Below the pieces are notes generated by a model. It was not told the DNA's origin, ran no database searches, and saw nothing but the letters and a program-made list of their open reading frames with translations. This document shows positions 1 to 36,460 of a DNA stretch of 64,000 bases, in pieces. The DNA comes from an uncultured virus (IMG/VR IMGVR_UViG_3300037195_001681) (lineage: Duplodnaviria; Heunggongvirae; Uroviricota; Caudoviricetes; Schitoviridae). Position numbers and translations under genes: made by a program. Within the stretch, counting starts at the first letter, position 1, and each line of letters begins with the position of its first letter. The stretch spans positions 1 through 64,000 of the IMG/VR virus record IMGVR_UViG_3300037195_001681. One strand, given 5' to 3'.

Positions 1-1359
1 TTCGTGAAGATCGGCGTGGGTGACTTCTTCGCCGACAGCAGCGATATATTTCGCGAGCTTCACATAGGCTTTCTCACGGCTCAGGATGGTCTGGAAGCTG
101 CGTCCAGACTCTTCAATGAGCAGGATAGCCGACATCAGATGATCCATCTCGACTTCGGAACTCTGATCCAGGAATGCGTAGCCACCGGCCAGCTTGAGAG
201 CCTTGAAGTACCGGTGGCCGAGTTCGGCCTTGCGGATTTCTTCGTGCTCGGGAAGAGCATCGGCAGCCTTTTCGCAGGCGATTTTGTAGGTCAGCAGCTG
301 GATGGCAACATCGTCTTCGACCATCATTCGCCAGCCGAACATCGCAGGATCTGCGAGCTTGTGGAACAGATTGGAAAGGCTGTTCATCGACTGCATGTTC
401 GATGGTTGGATCAGCTTCGCATAGATCTCGGCCGGCGACATGGTCTCATGAGCCTTATTCTTCTGCTGTCCGAAACCGAATATACAGCGTCGAGCATAAC
501 CGATGTCGAGGAAAGTGTAGAAAAGATCCTCGGTCTGGCTGCCGTCGAAAAGTTTGGATGGGGTACCGAAGAGCAGCATATTGGCCGGCGTCTTGCCGTC
601 GAGCTCTTCACCACGCTGGTTGTCGTTGGTATTCTTGGTGAGCTTCTGCTTCACGAGACCCTGGTCGTAAAGCTCCAGGAATGTCGTGAGAAGCTCATCC
701 GAGCCAGTCAGGTTCGAACCGATTTCGTCGATCTGAAGATTGATCGCACCGATGCCACCGATCAGGAGCTTCTGACGAAGCTGCTTGACGGCTGGCGTGC
801 TGCCGCTGTCGAAGGTGAAAGGGAAGGCGCCAGCACGGTTGTACTCGCCAGTGATCTTGTCGTATTCTTCCTGGTCACTGGTTCCCTTCTTGACGGCACG
901 ATCGGCAGCGAGTTTCCAGAAACGCTGCTCAGCGATCGTTTCCATCGTGTCCTGCATGAAGCGATTGCGAAAGGGCTTCATAAAGTCGTTTTCGATGATA
1001 TTGATCGAGTGACCCTTACCGAAACCTGAAGTTGCCAGAGCCAAAGCGTAGATATTCACAGGAATATCTCCACGATCCTTGGTGACGATCGTGGCACGCA
1101 TGTTCGAAGCCATCTTTCCGATGAAGTAGGCAGCTTCGCAGGAGAACAGGCTGCGGTCGGAATTCTGGGTTTTGGCACAGAGAACATCGACCATTTCCTT
1201 GAGCACTGGGTGGTGCTCGACTTTGGACAGGTCGATGCCCGGGAGCTCATCTGCAACTTGAGCCACCAGCGTCCTGTTCAAGGCAGCTTCTTGGCTCGTT
1301 TCTTGCATGATTTCCTGGGTTTTCTGAACGTCTTGGGTGTTTTGTGCGCCCTCAGTCAT
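1..1359 (-). CDS. DNA primase/helicase, N4 gp43-like (5' part; runs off window start)
   Basis: Missing from the ORF track because it is truncated. Manual translation from ATG at 1359 gives MTEGAQ...HHPVLKEMVDVLCAKTQNSDR...MRATIVTKDRGDIPVNIYALALATSGFGKGHS, with a P-loop, matching N4 primases. Synteny after the gp42-like gene fits. Confidence 0.85.
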   Translation of the reverse strand, partial: MTEGAQNTQDVQKTQEIMQETSQEAALNRTLVAQVADELPGIDLSKVEHHPVLKEMVDVLCAKTQNSDRSLFSCEAAYFIGKMASNMRATIVTKDRGDIPVNIYALALATSGFGKGHSINIIENDFMKPFRNRFMQDTMETIAEQRFWKLAADRAVKKGTSDQEEYDKITGEYNRAGAFPFTFDSGSTPAVKQLRQKLLIGGIGAINLQIDEIGSNLTGSDELLTTFLELYDQGLVKQKLTKNTNDNQRGEELDGKTPANMLLFGTPSKLFDGSQTEDLFYTFLDIGYARRCIFGFGQQKNKAHETMSPAEIYAKLIQPSNMQSMNSLSNLFHKLADPAMFGWRMMVEDDVAIQLLTYKIACEKAADALPEHEEIRKAELGHRYFKALKLAGGYAFLDQSSEVEMDHLMSAILLIEESGRSFQTILSREKAYVKLAKYIAAVGEEVTHADLHE

Positions 1360-16543: not shown

Positions 16544-17623
16544 TTAGTTTCCGCTCAGATACTTCGTCAGCGTCTGCATGGCGACAGCGAACTTCGGATG
16601 GGTACGAAGCTTGGGCTGCTGGACCATGAGGCCACGGAAGAAGAGCACACGGAAAGCCATGTCCATGCGATTGATGTAGGTCGAGAGATCGTGGAGATTC
16701 TCTTCGTTCGCCTGGGTCATCAGGTGAGTGACGATGATCCACTTGCGCTGGGCAGCGTTGTGCCCTTCGGGGATCGGAGCGTTTTCAGGATCTCGGAGCA
16801 CGTCCTTGATCGTCACGAGCTCATCCTTCAGCTGGCAGAAGGCCACGAATTCAGCTGCTACGCCGGAAGTGATCGTGCCGGCATAGAGAGCTGTCTTTTC
16901 CTGGGTCACTTCCTTGCCCTTGATGAGCTTGTTCATGAATTCCCAGGTACGCGGGCAGCAGAAGGTTTTCTCGTCGTGATCGGGACGGAAATCCATCAGG
17001 TATTTCTCGGCAAAACCGAGGAAAGCGATGATTCGCTCATCATAATGCTCTTTCAGAGCGACGTCTTCGAGCCATTCCTGGTGGCTGACTTGCATCTCGA
17101 TATGGATAACGCGGCTCTGCATGGCCGTGGAAAGCGTCGTGGTGATGGCACGATCGGTTTCGAGATTGCCGGCCAAAGCGATCGCGACACGTTCGTGGAG
17201 CGGATATTGGCCAGTCATCTTGTCGAGGATCAGCTTGTAGGCGGCTGCCTGGACCATCTTGGTTCCCGAATTGAATTCGTCAAGGAAGAGCAGCCAGCCG
17301 TCCTTGCCATCGGGAATGGGAGTGCCCTTGATCGGGAAGAGATCACCGAAGGGCGAGAATCGGGCAATACGGGTACCATCTTCGCGAGCCAGGAATTCAG
17401 GGAGACCGGTGAAGTCTTCTGGTGCCGAGGTACTGACACGGTGATCAATCATCTCGACGTTGAATTGATTGGCGATATTGCGGAAGATCGAGCTCTTGCC
17501 AACGCCCGGGGAACCACGGACGAAGGGTACTAGACCGGCTTCGATGGCATCAATGGCCATCGCGCGGACCTGGCGAGGGGTGCAACGATAAATGTTGTTG
17601 CCGGGGTTGTCGGGATTGCTCAC
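16544..17623 (-). CDS. MoxR-like AAA+ ATPase (N4 gp24-like)
   Basis: GSPGVGKS, LFLDEFN, AGN, MQSR, CPRTWE. Confidence 0.92.
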   Translation of the reverse strand: MSNPDNPGNNIYRCTPRQVRAMAIDAIEAGLVPFVRGSPGVGKSSIFRNIANQFNVEMIDHRVSTSAPEDFTGLPEFLAREDGTRIARFSPFGDLFPIKGTPIPDGKDGWLLFLDEFNSGTKMVQAAAYKLILDKMTGQYPLHERVAIALAGNLETDRAITTTLSTAMQSRVIHIEMQVSHQEWLEDVALKEHYDERIIAFLGFAEKYLMDFRPDHDEKTFCCPRTWEFMNKLIKGKEVTQEKTALYAGTITSGVAAEFVAFCQLKDELVTIKDVLRDPENAPIPEGHNAAQRKWIIVTHLMTQANEENLHDLSTYINRMDMAFRVLFFRGLMVQQPKLRTHPKFAVAMQTLTKYLSGN

Positions 17624-17685
17624 GAAATATCTCCTGTTTTTTCAAGTTTGTTGGAAGTTTCTGAAAAGAAATAGAAAACCACGAC

Positions 17686-17724
17686 AAAAAATAACCCGGC
17701 CCCCTTTGCATGGGGACCGGGTCA
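17686..17724 (-). terminator. Intrinsic terminator
   Basis: ACCCGG-CCCC/GGGG-CCGGGT stem with a TTATTTTTT tail on the minus strand. Confidence 0.7.
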
Positions 17725-17758
17725 CTTCTGTTTCGATCAGGAATTGATCGAGCTGGGA

Positions 17759-18514
17759 TCAGCTCTTGTGAGCAGCGACGATCTTGTCGGCGATTTCGTC
17801 CTTGTTGTTGTCAGTACGAACGCCTTCGATGTCCTTGGCCAGTTCGAGAAGCTCGTCCTTGGTATGATTGTCGACGAGTTCCTTCGAGGTCATTTCCTCG
17901 ACAGGCTTGGTCTCGTCTTGATCATCTTCCGATTCAGTTTCGGCGTCCGTATCGGTTTCGTCGTTGGCTTCGGTGCCGACACGGGTTTCCGAGCTTTCGG
18001 CCACGCCGTCGTCGGTTTCACCATCGGCGTCCGGATGAGTTTCCGGATCGTTGGTAACGGCGCCGGCTTCGGCCGCTTCTTCCGTCGGCGTGACGCCATT
18101 CGGTTCGAGCTGGTCCTTGGGAAGGCCGGTATTGCCTTCACCACCCGTCTGCGACGAATATTCGGGATCGACTTCGCCGGTGCTGGTGGGAAGCTGATCG
18201 GTACCACCCGTGAGCTGTTCGCGACGAGCGTTCACCGGAGCATTGCTCGACTGGTCGAGATAGGTGAGCTTGTCGAGATCGAGGCCAGAGAAGCGGTCAT
18301 CGGAGCTGTCACGAAGGACTTCCTTGGCCTTGGTGATCAGGATGTGATCGCCGTTTTCGCCATTGAGGGTCGTGCCTTCCGCGAGGCTGAAGGTGCCGAC
18401 CTCGGTGAAGCCCTGATTTTCGGCAGGGCCGAAATCGGCGAGAGCGATGACGACACGGTTCTGGCCATTCGCTTTGTGGACGGAGTATTTGGTCCGATTG
18501 TCCTGGTCGGTCAT
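17759..18514 (-). CDS. Acidic protein: decoration-protein-like N-terminus, D/E/T-rich linker, C-terminal helix-extension-helix
   Basis: Strong codon bias; VGTFS motif shared with 22463-22702; C-terminal TKDELLELAK...NKDEIADKI. Confidence 0.65.
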   Translation of the reverse strand: MTDQDNRTKYSVHKANGQNRVVIALADFGPAENQGFTEVGTFSLAEGTTLNGENGDHILITKAKEVLRDSSDDRFSGLDLDKLTYLDQSSNAPVNARREQLTGGTDQLPTSTGEVDPEYSSQTGGEGNTGLPKDQLEPNGVTPTEEAAEAGAVTNDPETHPDADGETDDGVAESSETRVGTEANDETDTDAETESEDDQDETKPVEEMTSKELVDNHTKDELLELAKDIEGVRTDNNKDEIADKIVAAHKS

Positions 18515-18774
18515 TTGGGAATTCCCTTCATCTTTCCTGGATCATGATCACGATCATCGTGGGGACGTCTTCACCCGCCACTCGGGTGAAACGTTCACGT
18601 ACAGGAAAGGTTTCTTCATGGGAAGAGAGGGAAAATAAAGAAAATGTGGGTCCACGTTCCTGGGAGGGGGATAGGAACTGACCCATCTGGATACGGCAAT
18701 ACCCAGCCGTCGAAGAGCGGGTCCAGCCTCGGGGGCGTTGAGACTGGATCACCGAGAAAACTCGACGGGATCTC

Positions 18775-19209
18775 TCACCTCGATCCTTGGTATGAGCCAC
18801 CGTCATAGCGACGGCGTATCTGAAGTCGATCCAGGTTGAGCTGGATGGCTTCAGGGGTTGGTGTGTAATTCTTGAGCCAGAAGTCTGGATCCTGGTCGAT
18901 CATGGCAGATGTGCCGAGCATGTCGATCACATCATCGTACCAGATCTGAATCGCAGGATCCTTGCGGAGGTCCAGACCTCGACGCTTACCTTCATGCCAG
19001 AGGTCCGAGTGCCGGCGATCGAGATAGCGGATTTTGTCGTAGAAGAATCTGAGATGACCAGTGCCAAGGCGGTAGCTCTCAGGAATATCCCGATCATTCT
19101 TCTGGATCGCCCGATATATCAAGGGCCACATTCGAGGTAACTCGAAATATTCGGCCATGATGAAATTATCGGTGAGCGCAGCGACCGCGACTACGTTGAT
19201 GCGGGTCAT
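18775..19209 (-). CDS. denV: Pyrimidine-dimer DNA glycosylase / endonuclease V
   Basis: MTRIN N-terminus, AEYFELPR (catalytic Glu), YRLGTGHLRFFYDK, YTPTPEAI. Confidence 0.92.
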   Translation of the reverse strand: MTRINVVAVAALTDNFIMAEYFELPRMWPLIYRAIQKNDRDIPESYRLGTGHLRFFYDKIRYLDRRHSDLWHEGKRRGLDLRKDPAIQIWYDDVIDMLGTSAMIDQDPDFWLKNYTPTPEAIQLNLDRLQIRRRYDGGSYQGSR

Positions 19210-19356
19210 GAGAATCTCCAGGTAGAGTTTGTTATACTGGACTATCCACCTCTGACCAGTGTTGGTTGCGAGTGTCTCCGGATATTATCCTTCGTTTCGT
19301 CTCTGCCCGGTTTGACTCCGGGTTTGATAACCCAGTTGTCTCTGGAATCCGAAGAA

Positions 19357-19694
19357 ATTTAGGAGAGATATTGGCTCTTGTCACGGGATCGAACCGGGAC
19401 ACCCTGACATGATCCACCTAACATTCCACCGTTGACGTCGACGAGCGATCGCTTCGTATGGCTGTGTATTCCCCGTCGGGAAGGTGGCGCCGTGAGACTT
19501 ATGCGTCAATTCGCACTTCTTACGTCCTCTAAGCCGCCCTTGTCGGCACTTGCGTAACCGCTCCGCTACTAACTCTTTCAGTGCGCGCTGATGCTAGATC
19601 ATCGCTGAAATCGTGTTCGGTTCATCACGGAATACGAGGACTCCCTGCGCTTCACGAACTCACAGGGACATGCGGGCCAATATCTCTTCTAAAT
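19357..19694 (-). ncRNA. Unidentified ~340-nt structured RNA (candidate)
   Basis: 21-nt terminal inverted repeat enclosing at least 6 internal helices; no credible ORF; lies inside the tRNA/tmRNA array. Confidence 0.6.
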
Positions 19695-19714
19695 CTCCTC
19701 TAAATTGATTTATT

Positions 19715-19842
19715 AGATCTCCTTCGGGATGGCCGGGCTCCGCTGCACCCGTGGCTTTCGTGAGCTTGCTCTGCCTGGGCCTGGTCGTGATCAGAACCAA
19801 GAACCTGTTTGAAAGGTCAATCGGCCATCTCGAAAGAGATGT
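19715..19842 (-). ncRNA. Unidentified ~125-nt structured RNA (candidate)
   Basis: ~20-bp closing stem ATCTCTTTCGAGATGGCCG/CGGCCATCCCGAAGGAGAT; strand assumed from neighbours. Confidence 0.45.
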
Positions 19843-20020
19843 AGGGTGGGGTCCGCCTGGCTGCTGCCTCCCCCGGTGACGCGTTTACTACTCCAGGCTT
19901 TAGGGCTCGATCCAGAAGACAATCTCGAAGCCATACTAACCTACCAGCTTATATTGGATGTTTCTGGGAATATTCCCTTCGTTTCTGTCCAAGCCACATG
20001 GGAGTCTTCTAGTACGAAAC

Positions 20021-20090
20021 TGGTGCCGTCTCTCCGGCTGTCACGTCTACACCTGGACGTTCACGTCCCGCTCTGAGGGGATCGACGGGC
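20021..20090 (-). ncRNA. c4 antisense-like RNA
   Basis: Minus strand ...ACGTCCAGGTGTAGACGTGACAGCCGGAGAGACGGCACCA; the GTGACAGCCGGAGAGACGGC 3' module matches my recollection of c4/c4-2 phage RNAs. Confidence 0.5.
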
Positions 20091-20165
20091 TGCCTCCCGA
20101 GAGTATCCTCAAAAACCTGTCATGATCAACTCTCGGTTGGTACAGATCAGACAGGCAGCTGAAAC

Positions 20166-20242
20166 TGGTTAGGAAGACAGGATTTGAACCTGCGACCCTC
20201 TACTCCCAAAGCAGATGCGCTACCAGACTGCGCTACTTCCTA
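20166..20242 (-). tRNA. tRNA-Pro (UGG)
   Basis: TAGGAAG/CTTCCTA acceptor stem, TCTGC-TTTGGGA-GTAGA anticodon arm, GGTTCAAATCC T arm, encoded CCA. Confidence 0.95.
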
Positions 20243-20257
20243 AAACAGTTTATGTAG

Positions 20258-20332
20258 TGGTTGCGGGAGTAGGATTTGAACCCACGACCTACGGATTATG
20301 ATTCCGTCGTTCTACCCCTGAACTATCCCGCT
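20258..20332 (-). tRNA. tRNA-Met (CAU), initiator-like
   Basis: AGCGGGA...TCCCGCAACCA with a 1:72 mismatch; ACGGA-ATCATAA-TCCGT anticodon arm; encoded CCA. Confidence 0.9.
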
Positions 20333-20349
20333 TCACTACAAAAATTCTG

Positions 20350-20640
20350 TGAGAGTTTCTGTTGCCAGGTACCCTCGGACCCCTGTGAATTTACGCCGCC
20401 AGGCGGAGAACGGGAACGCTCTCGTCGTTGTCGTTGACGTTTAGTCGAACTGTCAGCTAACGGCTGCCAATCGGGCCGCGTTCCGCATCTCTCGGCACAG
20501 TCGATCCTGGTTCGCCCCCATCAACTACACCGCACCTGTAACGCGTCTCACAACCTAAGGTTGGGTGCGGTGTAGATGGTGGAGGCGGCGGGTACTGCCC
20601 CCGCGTCCTCGTGCTTCAATCAACAGACCGAATTACGGCC
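20350..20640 (-). ncRNA. ssrA: Circularly permuted (two-piece) tmRNA, alphaproteobacterial type; tag (A)VNDNDESVPVLRLAA
   Basis: Acceptor piece ends GGGGGCAGTACCCGCCGCCTCCACCA (20577). An intervening hairpin (20520-20576) follows. The coding piece starts GGGGGCGAACCAGGATCGAC (20519), giving a G3-U70 pair. Tag ORF 20438-20391 ends LAA-stop, then ACCTGGCAACAGAA. Outer ends are approximate. Confidence 0.93.
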
Positions 20641-21022
20641 ATTCCCAAGTGCCAACAAGGGATCTTGAGAAACTCATGTGTAGGTGGCCCTAGGTCTGAT
20701 CGTCAAGAGTTATCTTGATGAGAGCAGCCTAGGGTCGCACGCTAAATCCCTCATAGCCGACAGAGTGTTTCAGAGGAATATCCTCAGGTTTCTATTCTTT
20801 ACGGACGTAGTATCGGGATCTTTCTAACTTTATTCCGGCCTTTCACCGGCCACTACAACCAGGGTCGTCCTGGAGGCCTGACACCTACGTTCAGGACTGG
20901 GGGCGATATCGCTCATGCTCGCGGACACCTTTGACCCAGGGGCAGGGGAGGCTCTGCTTCCTCAGGCTCACCACTCGTATGGCGCAATGCCAGCAGCAGG
21001 TGACGCTGATTCGAATATAAAG

Positions 21023-21096
21023 TGGAGAAGCGACCGGATTTGAACCGGCGCACCGGGTCGTGACTCCCGAGCTCTACCGGGCTGAGCTACGCTTCT
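21023..21096 (-). tRNA. Aberrant tRNA-like element (8-nt anticodon loop AGTCACGA; Val-CAC-like or undetermined)
   Basis: Acceptor (AGAAGCG/CGCTTCT), D and T arms are intact; anticodon arm is one nt short; CCA follows the stem with no discriminator base. Confidence 0.7.
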
Positions 21097-21267
21097 CATC
21101 TCCTGGGATCAGGCATGACCTGCGAAGATCCGGGAGATGTCCTTCGGTCCCGCACGGAGCTCTGCGCTATCTTTCGACGTGGGCGCGACCTTGAACCGAT
21201 CTCACTAACCGGTGTTTAGGTCTGGCTGCTTCGGGGACCCTCAGAACCAAGAAAAGGTGAAGGTTTC

Positions 21268-21648
21268 TCAGAATATTCCGAGGAACTTGGGTTTCGCCCG
21301 TTCGACGGCGCGACGATTGTTCTCGGTGCAGGTACGCTGGATGTGCATCGCGTCCCTGAGGCGTTCGTCGGCCTTGTCCACCTGGCCGGCCTCGGCGAGT
21401 CCGAAGTTGAGGGCCGACTGGAACCACTGGAGAGGAGCAAACCCGGGGGGGATTTCCTCCTGTGGAACCTCGTCGAAATCGGGCTGGTTCGCGTGGCCCA
21501 CGCCTTCCTCCCAGGTGTCGGGGATCAACTCCGTGCAGTCGACCGGGTCGGCCAGCACCGAGTTGGTGACGCAGCCCGGCAGACAGGCCGTGAGGAGCAG
21601 GAGAGAGGGGATCAGGAAGATCTTCCTGGTGATGGTGTTAGTCATCAT
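21268..21648 (-). CDS. Lipoprotein, putative o-spanin
   Basis: Signal RKIFLIPSLLLLTAC/LPGC lipobox, Pro-rich body, overlaps the 3' end of the upstream gene; GGAG RBS. Confidence 0.6.
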   Translation of the reverse strand: MMTNTITRKIFLIPSLLLLTACLPGCVTNSVLADPVDCTELIPDTWEEGVGHANQPDFDEVPQEEIPPGFAPLQWFQSALNFGLAEAGQVDKADERLRDAMHIQRTCTENNRRAVERAKPKFLGIF

Positions 21649-22779: not shown

Positions 22780-24024
22780 TTAGCTCAGAGCATACTCGCT
22801 GTCCATGATCTGAGTGATCATATTCGGATCGAGCTTGCCAATCGTGATCGGTTGACCGATGATCTGCGAGATCAGGTTGCCGAGCAGATTGGATTCGGCG
22901 ATCAGCTTGAGTTGGAGGTTATATTGCAGACGAAGGTCGTCACCGTAGTGCGGAAGACACCGGAAACAGTCATGCACAGAGACCAGTTTGAATGGCTTCT
23001 CGGGCAGACTGCGTATCAGGGACCGGATGGCCTCTGCATCGACATGACCGATGTTCTGAGGGTAGAGATGATCGAGGATACGAGCACTCAGGTACCCTGT
23101 ATCCTGGTAGCGTTGCCAGAGGGTCAGAACCATGCGGTCGTCGTCGCCTTCGGTGCTATCACCCCAAAGCGCCGGCTGCTCTAGCAGCTGGGTGAGCTGC
23201 ACGATTTTCCGACGATTATAGTCGCAACGACGGGTGAGTTCGCGAACGATCATTCCGTCCACAGAGTGTACGACATTGGCCCCCAGCGATCGACCAGATT
23301 CGGTCGGCATATTGACGTTGTAGAACACGTCATGGGGCATATTCGCGAAGTGGACAGTCTCCTTCACCGGGGCCATGACCTTCACCTTCACATGGAAGTT
23401 GTCGGGCAGGACCCAGGCGTTTTCGCTGGCTTCGGGATCCCACATCGCCATGAAGGCTTCGTTGAGTTCCCAGGCTGCCGGAGCGTTCTCATTGAGCACC
23501 TTATAGAAGGTGTCCAACAGGGCTCCTTCACCGAAGACCTTCTTGGGCATCGCTTTGGAACCATAGAAAGCTGTCATTACGGCAGCTTTAACTGGATCGC
23601 GTTCAATTTTCGCTGTGTCGTCGATTTCCTGGAGCATACGCTCGTAAATCGCCGTATAGGCGTCCATACGGGTGATATTCCCGTCCTTGTCTTCGATATT
23701 AATGACGTTGCACATACTGGAAGCACGCGCATCGCAGGTGAGAGCCGCCAGTAACTGGAGACCAGAGCTCGTAGCGTCGAGACTGATCATATAACCGATC
23801 GGTTCTCCGCGTTCGACAGCTCGCCATGCCTGAACACCTGCATAGAACAGGGCCGGCTCTTCAGCGACCTGTACGAGAGTTTCGAGCTGATGCTGATTGG
23901 CTCGGAACCACGCAATGCGTTGGTCCCAGGTCTGTTTATCGAGAGGTCCATCCTGATCGGCACCGAAATTGTTGGCGATGTCGATCATGAGGTATTCGCG
24001 TCCGGTAAACCGTTGGAAAGTCAC
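22780..24024 (-). CDS. RNA polymerase II subunit 2 (N4 gp16-like)
   Basis: GTG start at 24024 after AAGGAG; FTGREYLMIDIANNFG, motif A LDATSSGLQ, KAAVMTAFYGS, ANVVHSVDG, motif C VHDCF. Confidence 0.95.
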   Translation of the reverse strand: MTFQRFTGREYLMIDIANNFGADQDGPLDKQTWDQRIAWFRANQHQLETLVQVAEEPALFYAGVQAWRAVERGEPIGYMISLDATSSGLQLLAALTCDARASSMCNVINIEDKDGNITRMDAYTAIYERMLQEIDDTAKIERDPVKAAVMTAFYGSKAMPKKVFGEGALLDTFYKVLNENAPAAWELNEAFMAMWDPEASENAWVLPDNFHVKVKVMAPVKETVHFANMPHDVFYNVNMPTESGRSLGANVVHSVDGMIVRELTRRCDYNRRKIVQLTQLLEQPALWGDSTEGDDDRMVLTLWQRYQDTGYLSARILDHLYPQNIGHVDAEAIRSLIRSLPEKPFKLVSVHDCFRCLPHYGDDLRLQYNLQLKLIAESNLLGNLISQIIGQPITIGKLDPNMITQIMDSEYALS

Positions 24025-24025
24025 G

Positions 24026-24523
24026 TCATTTACTCCTTGGTCTTCGATTGTTGGCTTGCTCTTTACGAGTAGCCCAACAACAATTTGAGGGGGAATAATC
24101 ACAATCATTATCTGATCGTTCAATGGTGAGATCAGGATGATACCCATTATTAAGAGCCCAGCTCTCAAAATTGGGGTAGTCATCCCAAATAGGATCAATT
24201 TTAATTCCACGACCACCATAATAATCGTAGCTACTATTATTTGGATTTAAGCACCGTTCACGAATTCCTTTCCATATTTTATAGAGTCGAGTGTGTGATT
24301 GTCCATGCGTGCGTGCGCGATCACCTGTCACTTGACGACGATTACACCCACAAGATTTAGTAGAACCTCGTCGAAGTGAATTTATTAAAACTTCATGATG
24401 ATTCCCGCATGTGCATAGACATATTGCAAAACGCATTTTGCGTTTGCAATATAGGCGACTAACTGTCTGAATTACGGTTAATTGTCCGTATTTCTGACCA
24501 ACAATTGAGATTGCATTTGACAT
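24026..24523 (-). mobile_element. Free-standing HNH homing endonuclease gene
   Basis: YGQLTV, CLCTCG, TKSCGC, RC.NP...YGGRGI, TIERSDND..YSPSNCCWATRKEQANNRR; AT-rich relative to flanks. Confidence 0.88.
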
Positions 24524-31132: not shown

Positions 31133-31326
31133 GGATATTCTCCTTTCAACATATACTGAGTTTAAGGTAGGAATTTTGGATTGAGGAATATTCCTAAAGA
31201 GACGGAATTTTGTCCATCTAAGTAGGAATATTCCCTGATGTGTATAAAGGAATTTCTATCGGATAAATTGAAGTGAGTAAGGGATTTCTCCCCTACTCAC
31301 TCCTTAGGAAGGACTTATTCCTGACG

Positions 31327-35693: not shown

Positions 35694-35951
35694 ATGAGCG
35701 AAGTAAGTCAGGAAATTCACCCGGCCCCAAAGGAATTCACCGAGCATGAGATCAGCGTCGATCACATCCTACGGTTCTTTCATTATGCCCACCTGCCTCC
35801 TGCCCTCCAGGAACGCAGTCGGCCGTTCTGTGAACTGGCCCGGGTGATCATCGACACCACGGAACGCAATCCGGAACGCACCGTCGCACTGCGAAAACTG
35901 CTCGAAGCGAAGGATGCCTTCGTTCGTGCTGCCGTCGCGGGGAGGAATTGA
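35694..35951 (+). CDS. Small helical-hairpin phage protein, possibly Acb2/Tad1-like
   Basis: FFHYAHLP..LQ..S.PF..LA......NPERTVALRKLLEAKD..VRA; the gene is clear, the function is inferred. Confidence 0.6.
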   Translation: MSEVSQEIHPAPKEFTEHEISVDHILRFFHYAHLPPALQERSRPFCELARVIIDTTERNPERTVALRKLLEAKDAFVRAAVAGRN

Positions 35952-35953
35952 TC

Positions 35954-36460
35954 ATGGAACGCTTCATCGGAACCAAGCTGATCAAGGCGACACCTATGAC
36001 GCGCCTGGTCTACAATCAATATCGCGGCTGGGAGTTACCAGAAAACGAGAATGGTGAAGACGAGGGCTTCCTTGTCGAATATCTCGATGGCGGTGCTTCG
36101 AACGATGATCGTCACGAGGGTTACATCTCGTGGTCGCCGGCAGAAGTCTTCCATCGGGCATATCAGCCTTTGGACGCGATGAACTTCGGTCACGCTCTGG
36201 AAATGCTAAAGCTTGGCGAAGCAGTGAGCCGCGCCGGCTGGAACGGGAAAGGGATGTTCCTCTACCTGGTTCCGGCGCCAGCCGAAGGTTATCCGGCCCA
36301 GACGGGTGTCGCGAAGAAGTTCTTCGGCGAAAATGCCTTGGTACCTTACGGACCCTATATCGCGATGAAGACCGCGACCGGCGAGGTGGTACCGTGGCTC
36401 TGCTCGCAGACGGACGCTCTGGCGGAAGACTGGGGTGTGGTGGAGATCCACGAAGAATAA
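35954..36460 (+). CDS. DUF2829 (Tad2-like) domain protein with an extra N-terminal domain
   Basis: C-terminal MNFGHALE.LK.G..V.RAGWNGKGMF...PYIAMKT...VPW..SQTD.LAEDW; N-terminal FIGTK...GYISWSP.EVF..AY. Confidence 0.85.
   Translation: MERFIGTKLIKATPMTRLVYNQYRGWELPENENGEDEGFLVEYLDGGASNDDRHEGYISWSPAEVFHRAYQPLDAMNFGHALEMLKLGEAVSRAGWNGKGMFLYLVPAPAEGYPAQTGVAKKFFGENALVPYGPYIAMKTATGEVVPWLCSQTDALAEDWGVVEIHEE

Follow-up and report, generated by a model that had tools for sequence, protein, structure and literature searches.

The genome of the uncultured virus IMGVR_UViG_3300037195_001681 carries a gene-poor island in which we found an RNA of 336 nucleotides (nt), here called module A, that represents with high confidence a genuine structured RNA family absent from Rfam 15. 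The island occupies positions 18520-21265 of the 64,000-nt stretch of this virus record that we analysed, hereafter the window; the genome record as a whole comprises 72,189 bases and its completeness is rated 98%. Our reading, to which we assign a probability of about 0.5, is that the stretch is an accessory RNA-gene cluster of a marine N4-like phage and that module A is a processed RNA that mimics transfer RNA (tRNA). An earlier note on this DNA had described the island as packed with structured RNAs; that observation is partly confirmed by the analysis reported here, and its reading of a multi-RNA region is partly supported.

A covarying RNA family

Homologues of module A were sought among phage, plasmid, genome and metagenome sequences. 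A blastn search with the island against 50,697 phage records returned matches to tRNAs together with a 73-nt match of 85% identity in Agrobacterium phage JP1, which falls in an unannotated intergenic region, and a narrower query added Rhizobium phage RHph_Y1_11. The regions of these two cultured phages and of the window share several blocks of sequence (CCGCAUGU; CCYCGYAUUCYCCG; GGRGUUACGCAAGUNCCGACAAGGNCGGNUUAGGGG; CGAAUURACG; and GGGUGUCCGGUUCNAUCCCGG), and each region sits between flanks that pair with one another. Pattern scans of metagenomes gave six stretches, comprising three new members (L008, L012 and the partial L013), the window's own contig (L009) and two chance matches. The IMG/VR members are L004, L005 and L006, the last of which is cut by the end of its contig; a scan of IMG/VR with the pattern GGNGTTACGCAAGTNCCGA gave 19 stretches, three on contigs already known and 16 by chance, at least 13 of the latter representing one tail-fibre-like coding sequence. 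With the window copy included, the family comprises seven full-length and two partial members, with an RNA length of about 280-370 nt.

Further searches delimit the distribution of the family. Four family members used as blastn queries against the same 50,697 phage records returned JP1 and RHph_Y1_11 only, a blastn search of 72,556 plasmids returned no member, and a pattern scan of 185,579 species-representative genomes returned a single stretch, a chance match in a coding region. In the Rfam scan that the earlier note had called for, module A was matched by no Rfam 15 family, either in the window (expectation value, E, up to 10) or in the homologue loci (E up to 10 and 1).

The family is defined by a closing helix, P1, of at least 15 bp, the joining segment J1/2 (CCGCAUGU), the hairpin P2, a CCYCG-YAUU-CYCC junction, UUACGCAAGU, a P6 loop of ACAAGGN, a P7 loop of AAUURA, and GGGUGU followed by a hairpin with the loop UUCNAYC. 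The window copy has every one of these elements, with departures at CCGU/GCGG in P4 and at GAUGAA in place of GCAAGA that are both common to L005. Its P1 spans 18 bp, within an inverted repeat that reaches 19351-19700, and a script check found P1 in all seven full-length members (15-20 bp) with widely different sequences, although most 5' strands keep a purine-rich, GAAG-like run. Inside P1, J1/2 leads into P2, the junction of P3 and P4 carries UUACGCAAGU without variation, and P6 is a D-arm-like hairpin (GCCG-ACAAGGG-CGGC) with a 4-bp stem whose closing pair covaries (GC, UA, CG). P7 is a hairpin with an AAUUGA loop, P8 is a variable domain whose interior cannot be aligned, and GGGUGU precedes P9, a T-arm-like hairpin (CCCGG-UUCGAUC-CCGUG).

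Covariation among homologues, which the earlier note had proposed as a check, is strong for module A. RNAalifold applied to a MAFFT alignment of nine sequences (alignment A2) predicted P2, P3, P4, P6 and P7, with compensatory changes in 17 of 32 pairs. We then counted 37 pairs including an added P9 (310 cells) and compared them with 500 shuffles. The proportion of cells that pair was 93.5% (79.5% in shuffles, standard deviation 1.4), the number of pairs changed on both sides was 18 of the 37 (9.7 in shuffles) and the covariation score was 0.390 (0.140 in shuffles), and in none of these measures did any of the 500 shuffles reach the observed value. Sliding the 3' partners by 1-3 columns reduced pairing to 31-50% and the doubly changed pairs to 1-8. 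P1 and P8 stood outside these counts, some of their MAFFT rows being one column out of register, and were checked by script; the base of P8 covaries by eye (CCACC/GGUGG, UGCC/GGCA, CGGA/UCCG, UCCG/CGGA, CUGG/CCAG and UUCG/CGAA). With regard to strand, the 27 G.U cells summed from the pair table would be A.C mismatches on the opposite strand, indicating that the sense of module A is the minus strand, as it is for the tRNAs. Two additional pairings examined by eye, an RNase P-like P4 and a pseudoknot between J1/2 and CACGGCG, were inconsistent across members.

tRNA likeness and competing explanations

Two of the hairpins resemble arms of tRNA. The P6 loop, ACAAGGN, resembles a D-arm in having analogues of A14, G18 and G19, and the P9 loop, UUCGAUC or UUCUAYC, has the T-loop pattern (UUCNAYC) with analogues of U54, U55, C56 and A58. 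The T-loop word GGTTCNANYCC, searched for on the minus strand across the 72-kb genome, is confined to the three tRNAs of the island and module A.

We came upon a second, smaller RNA family through an exact match of 29 nt to Sulfitobacter phage vB_SupP_AX. The match lies in an intergenic element of ~130 nt in that N4-like phage, with a D-like hairpin, GGGUGU and a T-hairpin as in module A. A gapped pattern then identified 36 stretches in IMG/VR, 20 of which (14 distinct sequences) belong to the small family, the rest being chance matches in coding sequence. Its 15 members, vB_SupP_AX and the 14 from IMG/VR, have the order closing helix, CCACUAGG, D-arm-like CCGACAAGGNCGG, GGGUGU, a 9-bp T-hairpin, RCGCG and the other strand of the closing helix. 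Compensatory change is seen in half of the 22 consensus pairs (11) of the 15-sequence alignment A4; these pairs make up the closing helix and the T-hairpin, which directly adjoins the 3' strand of that helix in a stack like that of an acceptor stem and T-arm. A covariance model of the small family (R1) matched the T-hairpin of module A at 21.1 bits (E 0.02) and the T-arm of the non-canonical tRNA of the island at only 8.8 bits; the other two tRNAs were unlisted at E up to 10, and nothing else was found over the window. Because R1 scores module A far above the tRNA T-arms, module A and the small family share a module, by descent or by exchange. The small family has no Rfam match, and our literature searches returned no description of module A or small-family RNAs and no paper naming JP1, RHph_Y1_11 or vB_SupP_AX. 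One small-family locus, L062, on a 156-kb viral contig, also holds a sub-threshold YrlA-like match (56-173, plus strand; 34.8 bits against 69, E 1.2e-4) ~200 nt upstream of the small-family member.

The surroundings of module A link part of the family to tRNA genes. In L012 the order matches that of the window, with an alpha-type transfer-messenger RNA (tmRNA; 109 bits), tRNA-Pro(UGG), module A and a denV-like open reading frame (ORF). In L004, a provirus according to IMG/VR, 4 nt separate module A from the preceding tRNA-Pro(UGG) and 12 nt from the tRNA-like gene that comes next, a spacing that fits excision from a tRNA-type precursor. The tRNA-Pro(UGG) gene is directly upstream of module A in both of these loci and 470 nt upstream in the window, and L006 has a tRNA-Thr upstream. 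Module A also occurs in unrelated phage backbones. On the N4-like contig G001 a copy 76% identical to that of the window has a 293-aa ORF on one side and, on the other, the end of the virion RNA polymerase gene, which converges on it. Across the family the gap before the next ORF varies between 14 nt and ~140 nt, which speaks against cis-regulation. Downstream of module A on contig G001 (L014 1180-1260, minus strand) are two T-arm-like hairpins, GGCCGGUUCGAUUCCGGC and CCGGGGUUCGAGUCCCUGG, neither of which was called a tRNA by ARAGORN or Rfam.

Our best guess is that module A is a processed, stable, tRNA-mimicking RNA. It would be a free-standing, trans-acting RNA released from a tRNA/tmRNA-type transcript, with its ends held in P1, which may serve for RNase III-type processing, for protection of the ends, or for both. 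Contact between loops L6 and L9 may create an elbow like that of tRNA, borne on a much larger scaffold, and this elbow would be recognised by a factor that reads the form of tRNA, be it the ribosome, RNase P or a tRNA-binding enzyme or nuclease; module A could act as decoy, scaffold or catalyst. Mimicry of the tRNA elbow is a tentative proposal to which we give slightly less than even odds, and a role as decoy or anti-defence tool is doubtful.

Several observations weigh against this picture. ACAAGG and the T-loop owe part of their invariance to ascertainment, as most homologues were found by patterns that contain ACAAGG and those of the small family by a pattern that also contains the T-loop, and the elbow lies beyond covariation testing because it is based on invariant nucleotides. 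Some 6 nt separate P9 from P1, so that the coaxial stack of acceptor and T-arm in a true tRNA is not reproduced, and P9 pairs in 82.9% of cells. The model rests on 7-9 sequences with an unalignable P8, and the 5' strands of P1 are not fully free to vary, the GAAG-like word being a possible protein site. In addition, no tRNA lies within 2-3 kb of module A in JP1 or RHph_Y1_11, and none of the 14 small-family loci has one within 400 nt, limiting the link with tRNA clusters to about half of the module A members.

GOLLD and ROOL are large multi-helix RNAs of phages and prophages, of obscure function, ~580-800 nt in length and often found beside tRNA genes. Module A occupies the same genomic niche, adjoining tRNA genes in phages, and with its 280-370 nt, many conserved junction nucleotides and at least eight helices it could likewise be a large ornate ribozyme or an RNA-only self-assembling particle in which the tRNA-like hairpins are merely structural. 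One paper, which also uses the term 'tRNA array', reports that GOLLD, ROOL and OLE form homo-oligomeric complexes (PMC12286853). We nevertheless consider this explanation distinctly unlikely, as neither GOLLD, ROOL nor any ribozyme family of Rfam matched module A in the window (E up to 10) or in its homologues (E up to 10 and 1). Module A is also smaller and found in alphaproteobacterial phages. An RNA of a known class that Rfam missed through high divergence, be it a group I intron, RNase P RNA, Y RNA/YrlA or tmRNA-like RNA, is very unlikely. The T-loop, the GNRA-type GCAA loop, the multi-helix junctions and the long terminal helix would suit such a class, and ACAAGGGCGGCUUA, with AAGUC nearby, is loosely like the CR-IV/V words of RNase P (from the Escherichia coli M1 sequence). 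None of these classes, however, matched module A at E up to 10. For RNase P RNA (type A/B), the candidate P4-like pairing AAG(U)CU/GGCUU is broken in four members (JP1, L012, RHph_Y1_11 and L004), and ACAAGGN is a hairpin loop whose closing pair covaries; for a group I intron, the flanks are intergenic and pair together, and there are no split exons.

YrlA (RF02553) invites a closer comparison. As described, YrlA is a non-coding RNA that ends in a long helix and mimics tRNA through D-arm-like and T-arm-like hairpins, a combination also seen in Y RNAs; it occurs in phages too, and its features are a GNCGAAN0-1G word near the 5' end (a putative Ro60 site) and a Ro60 (TROVE) gene within ~2 kb (PMC4201824). 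Module A has a terminal helix with D-like and T-like arms, but it is three times longer and its arms run D then T as in tRNA, whereas in the Rfam consensus of YrlA the T arm lies 5' of the D arm. The YrlA covariance model did not match module A in the window or in the 5+4 homologue loci, and its only match in the window (19 bits against 69) falls on true tRNAs. GNCGAAN0-1G is not in the window copy and occurs in one of nine P1 strands, that of L004, and no TROVE/Ro60 was found among the 51 window ORFs scanned, a set that includes the island flanks and leaves the structural-gene block at 42598-63649 outside.

Two further explanations concern the DNA around module A. A denV-like ORF follows module A in the window (after 141 nt) and in L012 (after 17 nt), and RHph_Y1_11 has a Shine-Dalgarno-like AAGGAG directly past P1, as might be expected if module A were a cis-acting leader (riboswitch or attenuator) of the downstream gene, denV in the window. 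Because the downstream genes differ between members, such a role has only a slim chance of being correct: the partners differ in five of the seven full-length members and are unrelated small ORFs, a tRNA-like gene (L004) or non-coding sequence facing a convergent gene (G001), and the long P1 seals the RNA from downstream sequence, with no terminator/antiterminator alternative evident. Slimmer still is the chance that the stem-closed units are mobile DNA, similar to miniature inverted-repeat transposable elements with terminal inverted repeats, for which the island would be a landing pad. Inverted repeats of 15-25 bp do bracket module A and the neighbouring stem-closed module B, related strains do differ by insertions and replacements exactly between units, and module A does occur in unrelated phage backbones. 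Yet the interior of module A is conserved while its terminal repeats differ and stay complementary, the opposite of what a repeat family recognised by a transposase shows; moreover, the internal helices covary, the G.U pairs are strand-specific, and the genome has neither target-site duplications nor multiple copies.

Genes, spacers and exchangeable pieces of the island

The genes that flank the island identify the phage as N4-like (Schitoviridae-type). On one side, an AAA ATPase ORF (16544-17623, minus strand) matches N4 gp24-type ATPases in 822 phage records with identities up to 55%. On the other, the ORF at 22780-24219 (minus strand) has a single-subunit RNA polymerase domain like that of N4 RNAPII, and beyond it on the same strand lie genes for a family-A DNA polymerase, a helicase, a ThyX-type thymidylate synthase and a dCTP deaminase. 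The sequencing runs that contain the stretch are marine metagenomes, and the host of the phage is presumably an alphaproteobacterium. Within the island, denV and all of the RNA genes lie on the minus strand, as do the flanking genes (Table 1). The intergenic region between the start of the ATPase gene and the end of a 251-aa ORF (17640-17799) has the most negative local fold of our scan (z −6.5, minus strand). At the point where two gene blocks diverge, the ORF at 35948-36460 (plus strand) has a strong Tad2-like (Thoeris anti-defence 2) domain (PF11195, E 8.6e-26).

Table 1. Positions of the RNA genes, protein gene, spacers and repeated motifs of the island, and of the small RNA family
Feature	Position	Strand	Evidence and remarks
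Module A	19358-19693	-	336 nt; uncatalogued structured RNA family member; homologues and covariation
Module B	19714-19843	-	candidate RNA of ~130 nt; ~21-bp closing helix around three hairpins; single sequence
Small RNA family	L003 2987-3116; IMG/VR loci L045, L047, L051-L058, L062, L067, L071, L073	- (L003)	~115-135 nt
denV-like pyrimidine-dimer DNA glycosylase	18775-19209	-	144 aa; Pfam PF03013 Pyr_excise E 4.7e-7; phrog_1183 E 1.1e-30
Two-piece (circularly permuted) alpha-type tmRNA	20348-20710	-	Rfam alpha_tmRNA 121.3 bits; ARAGORN tmRNA*
tmRNA leader hairpin	20672-20740	-	z −4.44
tRNA-Pro(UGG)	20166-20242	-	CCA encoded; ARAGORN, Rfam
tRNA(CAU)	20258-20332	-	CCA encoded; ARAGORN, Rfam
Non-canonical tRNA	21024-21096	-	no CCA encoded; ARAGORN 'tRNA-???'; Rfam tRNA (RF00005) 45.0 bits
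S_a	21097-21262	-	two local stem-closed hairpin units upstream of the non-canonical tRNA; weak candidates
S_b	20741-21023	-	ORF-free spacer; z −0.02, +0.39; no support as structured RNA
S_c	19844-20165	-	ORF-free spacer; z −1.64, −0.24, +1.55
S_f	19210-19350	-	linker between module A and denV; z −1.65; site of the rejected c4-a1b1 match
S_g	18515-18774	-	stable hairpin clusters between denV and the next gene; z −4.35 (18520-18640), −3.53 (18641-18774)
Punctuation motif, copy 1	21263-21295	-	GAAAC, imperfect AATATT-centred palindrome, GAAAC; upstream island edge
Punctuation motif, copy 2	20767-20792	-	within S_b
Punctuation motif, copy 3	19960-19985	-	within S_c
Punctuation motif, copy 4	19274-19298	-	within S_f

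Much of the known content of the island that the earlier note had listed was borne out. Its claim that denV is the only credible protein gene agrees with our finding that this is the sole ORF with Pfam or PHROG family support between 18515 and 21267; the other ORFs examined there, at 18528-18806 (minus strand) and 19846-20076 (plus strand), matched neither database. The three tRNA-shaped genes and the permuted tmRNA that it had recognised were all called by ARAGORN on the minus strand, and Rfam agrees. At gathering thresholds the only Rfam matches in the window are alpha_tmRNA, tmRNA_permuted and the three tRNAs, and a permissive scan of 18400-21400 added only matches at chance level, among which those to ar14, YrlA, internal ribosome entry sites and other families lie far under their gathering scores on tRNAs or unrelated sequence. 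The c4-like RNA of the earlier note did not hold up: its sole counterpart is a match to c4-a1b1 on the plus strand (19296-19338; 13.9 bits against a gathering score of 46.7, E 4.6), and the c4 RNA model itself (clan CL00128) returned no match in the permissive scan. We did recover the long closing stems, at 19351-19375/19676-19700 (25 nt, 88%) and 19714-19735/19822-19843 (22 nt, 86%), as well as the flanking pairs said to extend two acceptor stems, a 6-bp AAACUG/CAGUUU helix at tRNA-Pro(UGG) (20162-20167/20246-20251) and a 7-bp UGUAGUG/CACUACA helix at tRNA(CAU) (20253-20259/20334-20340), both of which overlap the encoded CCA.

The tmRNA is apparently functional. It matches the alphaproteobacterial two-piece tmRNA (RF01849 / RF04321), scoring 121.3 bits with alpha_tmRNA (gathering score 50) over model positions 1-355 and 88.8 bits with tmRNA_permuted (gathering score 47), and its pieces have the permuted order of an acceptor piece ending in CCA, an intervening segment that forms a hairpin with 24-nt arms (an inverted repeat), and a coding piece. 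ARAGORN gives the tag as (A)VNDNDESVPVLRLAA, ending in LAA plus a stop, and in the Rfam alignment the acceptor helix GGGGGCG/CGCCUCC, followed by A-CCA, includes the G3.U70 pair. The three tRNA-shaped genes have Rfam tRNA scores of 66.1, 62.6 and 45.0 bits. In tRNA(CAU) an A1.A72 mismatch tops the acceptor stem, yet just two G-C pairs stand at the foot of the anticodon stem, and this gene may encode an initiator tRNA, an elongator Met tRNA or tRNA-Ile2. The non-canonical tRNA fails to form the canonical 5-bp anticodon stem and 7-nt loop, and ARAGORN assigns it no anticodon; because its 4-bp stem (CGGG/CCCG) encloses 8 nt (AGUCACGA), where the Rfam model has 9, its anticodon is ambiguous. An aberrant anticodon arm is common to this gene and to the tRNA-like gene that adjoins module A in L004 (339-415, minus strand; 'tRNA-???'). 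The latter has a normal acceptor stem, D-arm, T-arm and CCA, and would be unable to decode because its anticodon arm consists of 6 bp capped by a GACG tetraloop. Between their tRNA-like genes, L004 and L006 share a repeated word, AGTTTCGCCCGAATGGGCA, that forms a GCCC-GAAU-GGGC hairpin and is possibly a terminator or processing signal of these genes.

With regard to the remaining sequence, coding controls in the window reach z-scores of −1.7 to −3.4, so that modestly negative values are background here and thermodynamics alone cannot rank the units; the local 120-nt scan is also insensitive, module A itself scoring near zero in short windows. Module B (19712-19845) has a z-score of −3.50, with none of 200 shuffles folding as well, and when the island was compared by blastn with G001 and all retrieved loci, only module A, tRNAs and tmRNA pieces were matched, leaving module B without a homologue elsewhere. 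In S_a, 21142-21240 has a z-score of −2.18 (9 of 200 shuffles as good) and 21097-21141 one of −2.87 (0 of 200), and S_c contains one modest three-way fold at 20086-20162, its remainder being unsupported. The S_g clusters, which include an GGGAATTCCC palindrome (18517-18526) right before the start codon of the next gene, are probably an untranslated-region or terminator structure and are not conserved. The unnamed stretches above background are module A (by covariation), module B, 18520-18640, 18641-18774, 20672-20740 and 21097-21141. The earlier note had counted at least six structured units that it could not name; one of these, module A, is solid, and the count is too high. Nor is the island made throughout of back-to-back structured modules, since shuffled sequence folds as well as S_b and most of S_c do (~600 nt, about a fifth of the island, of which half has been replaced in a related strain).

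This related strain is represented by contigs of run X7, aligned at 80% likeness and ~90-95% identical over the aligned pieces; joints at that likeness can mislead in metagenomes, but those seen here join pieces that keep the order of the window, on contigs of 51.7 kb and 20.6 kb. The contigs cover 18402-18593 and 18731-19700 (denV, S_f and module A; 52 other letters), 19717-19886 (module B; 8 other letters), the tmRNA pieces 20343-20525, 20589-20663 and 20677-20740, and 21020-21256 (the non-canonical tRNA and S_a; 8 other letters and 10 gap positions). The differences listed within denV fall mostly at multiples of three, as expected of a gene under selection. Between the conserved pieces, 18594-18730 (part of S_g) is replaced by 1538 letters, 212 letters are inserted between modules A and B, 20741-21019 (S_b) is replaced by 91 letters, and a joint from 19886 to 20163 skips 276 nt of S_c, the letters between not being known. 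The nearest IMG/VR relative by RNAPII (61% amino acid identity) carries neither tRNA nor tmRNA in the 7 kb that follow its RNAPII gene, only ordinary ORFs. The absence of tRNA and tmRNA from this relative, together with the segments exchanged in the related strain, indicates that the island is accessory and built of exchangeable pieces. A search for sequencing runs that contain the stretch listed none of RNA. Two runs of one wastewater study contain contigs identical or nearly identical to 19418-19647, 19698-19891 and 20416-20530 (pieces of module A, module B and the tmRNA); the 'RNA-Seq' label of these runs is only a guess and cannot show transcription, and their gaps in coverage carry no meaning.

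A composite motif punctuates the island. It consists of GAAAC, a 4-5-bp hairpin centred on AT-rich letters, and GA(A/G)AC, spans 26-33 nt, and was found by a script scan in four copies in the window, all of them in the island and on the minus strand. The copies split the island into the non-canonical tRNA with S_b, the tmRNA with two tRNAs, module B with module A, and denV. They could equally be promoters, terminators or processing sites. N4 early promoters are described as DNA hairpins made by inverted repeats (PMC4496689), which makes a promoter role conceivable. The island may accordingly yield one precursor or several. Related bare palindromes (GGAATATTCC) occur at 31184-31195 and 31225-31234.

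Known stable RNAs and the place of the new family

Folded RNAs longer than ~250 nt are rare in bacteria and phages, and the known ones are mostly ribozymes, ribonucleoprotein scaffolds and, lately, RNA-only cages. Two further stable RNAs bear comparison with module A. Species 1 and 2 of phage T4 (rnaC/rnaD) are unexplained stable RNAs of ~120-140 nt that lie in a tRNA cluster and are processed together with tRNAs; in length they come closer to the small family than to module A. The tRNA-like domain of tmRNA, like module A, sets an acceptor-like terminal helix, a T-arm and a reduced D-loop analogue on a larger RNA, and the island has a genuine tmRNA 650 nt upstream of module A. Module A differs in lacking an encoded CCA, a G.U alanine identity pair at P1 and a conserved tag frame, its P9 is not contiguous with P1, and ARAGORN and both Rfam tmRNA models skip it. 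By analogy, module A appears most like the stem-closed, tRNA-mimicking non-coding RNAs, namely YrlA, the tRNA-like domain of tmRNA and the T4 RNAs. Because no testable feature of membership held for module A, we place it in none of these, nor with GOLLD and ROOL, and rate it a new family of phage tRNA-like or ornate RNAs.

The mechanism proposed in the earlier note, a polycistronic precursor cut into many RNAs, is plausible, and its suggestion of a translation-takeover or anti-defence toolkit is speculation. A broader version of this idea, which we think unlikely, is that module A and the small family form a new class of phage tRNA mimics that display a tRNA elbow on a stem-closed scaffold to bind a host reader of tRNA shape and that, with the tRNAs, their anticodon-less look-alikes and the tmRNA, would make up a kit protecting or redirecting translation. 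Candidates for the host reader are the ribosome, RNase P, a modification enzyme and defences directed at tRNA, such as an anticodon nuclease.

The island also serves as a caution that gene-free sequence beside phage tRNAs is not all RNA. As module A is present in two cultured phages, JP1 on Agrobacterium tumefaciens and RHph_Y1_11 on Rhizobium phaseoli, its expression, processing, partners and knock-outs are directly testable. Its D-arm and T-arm look-alikes, together with its recurrence by tRNA-Pro, tmRNA and tRNA-like genes that lack an anticodon, tie the new family to the question of why phages carry tRNA islands and unexplained small stable RNAs.

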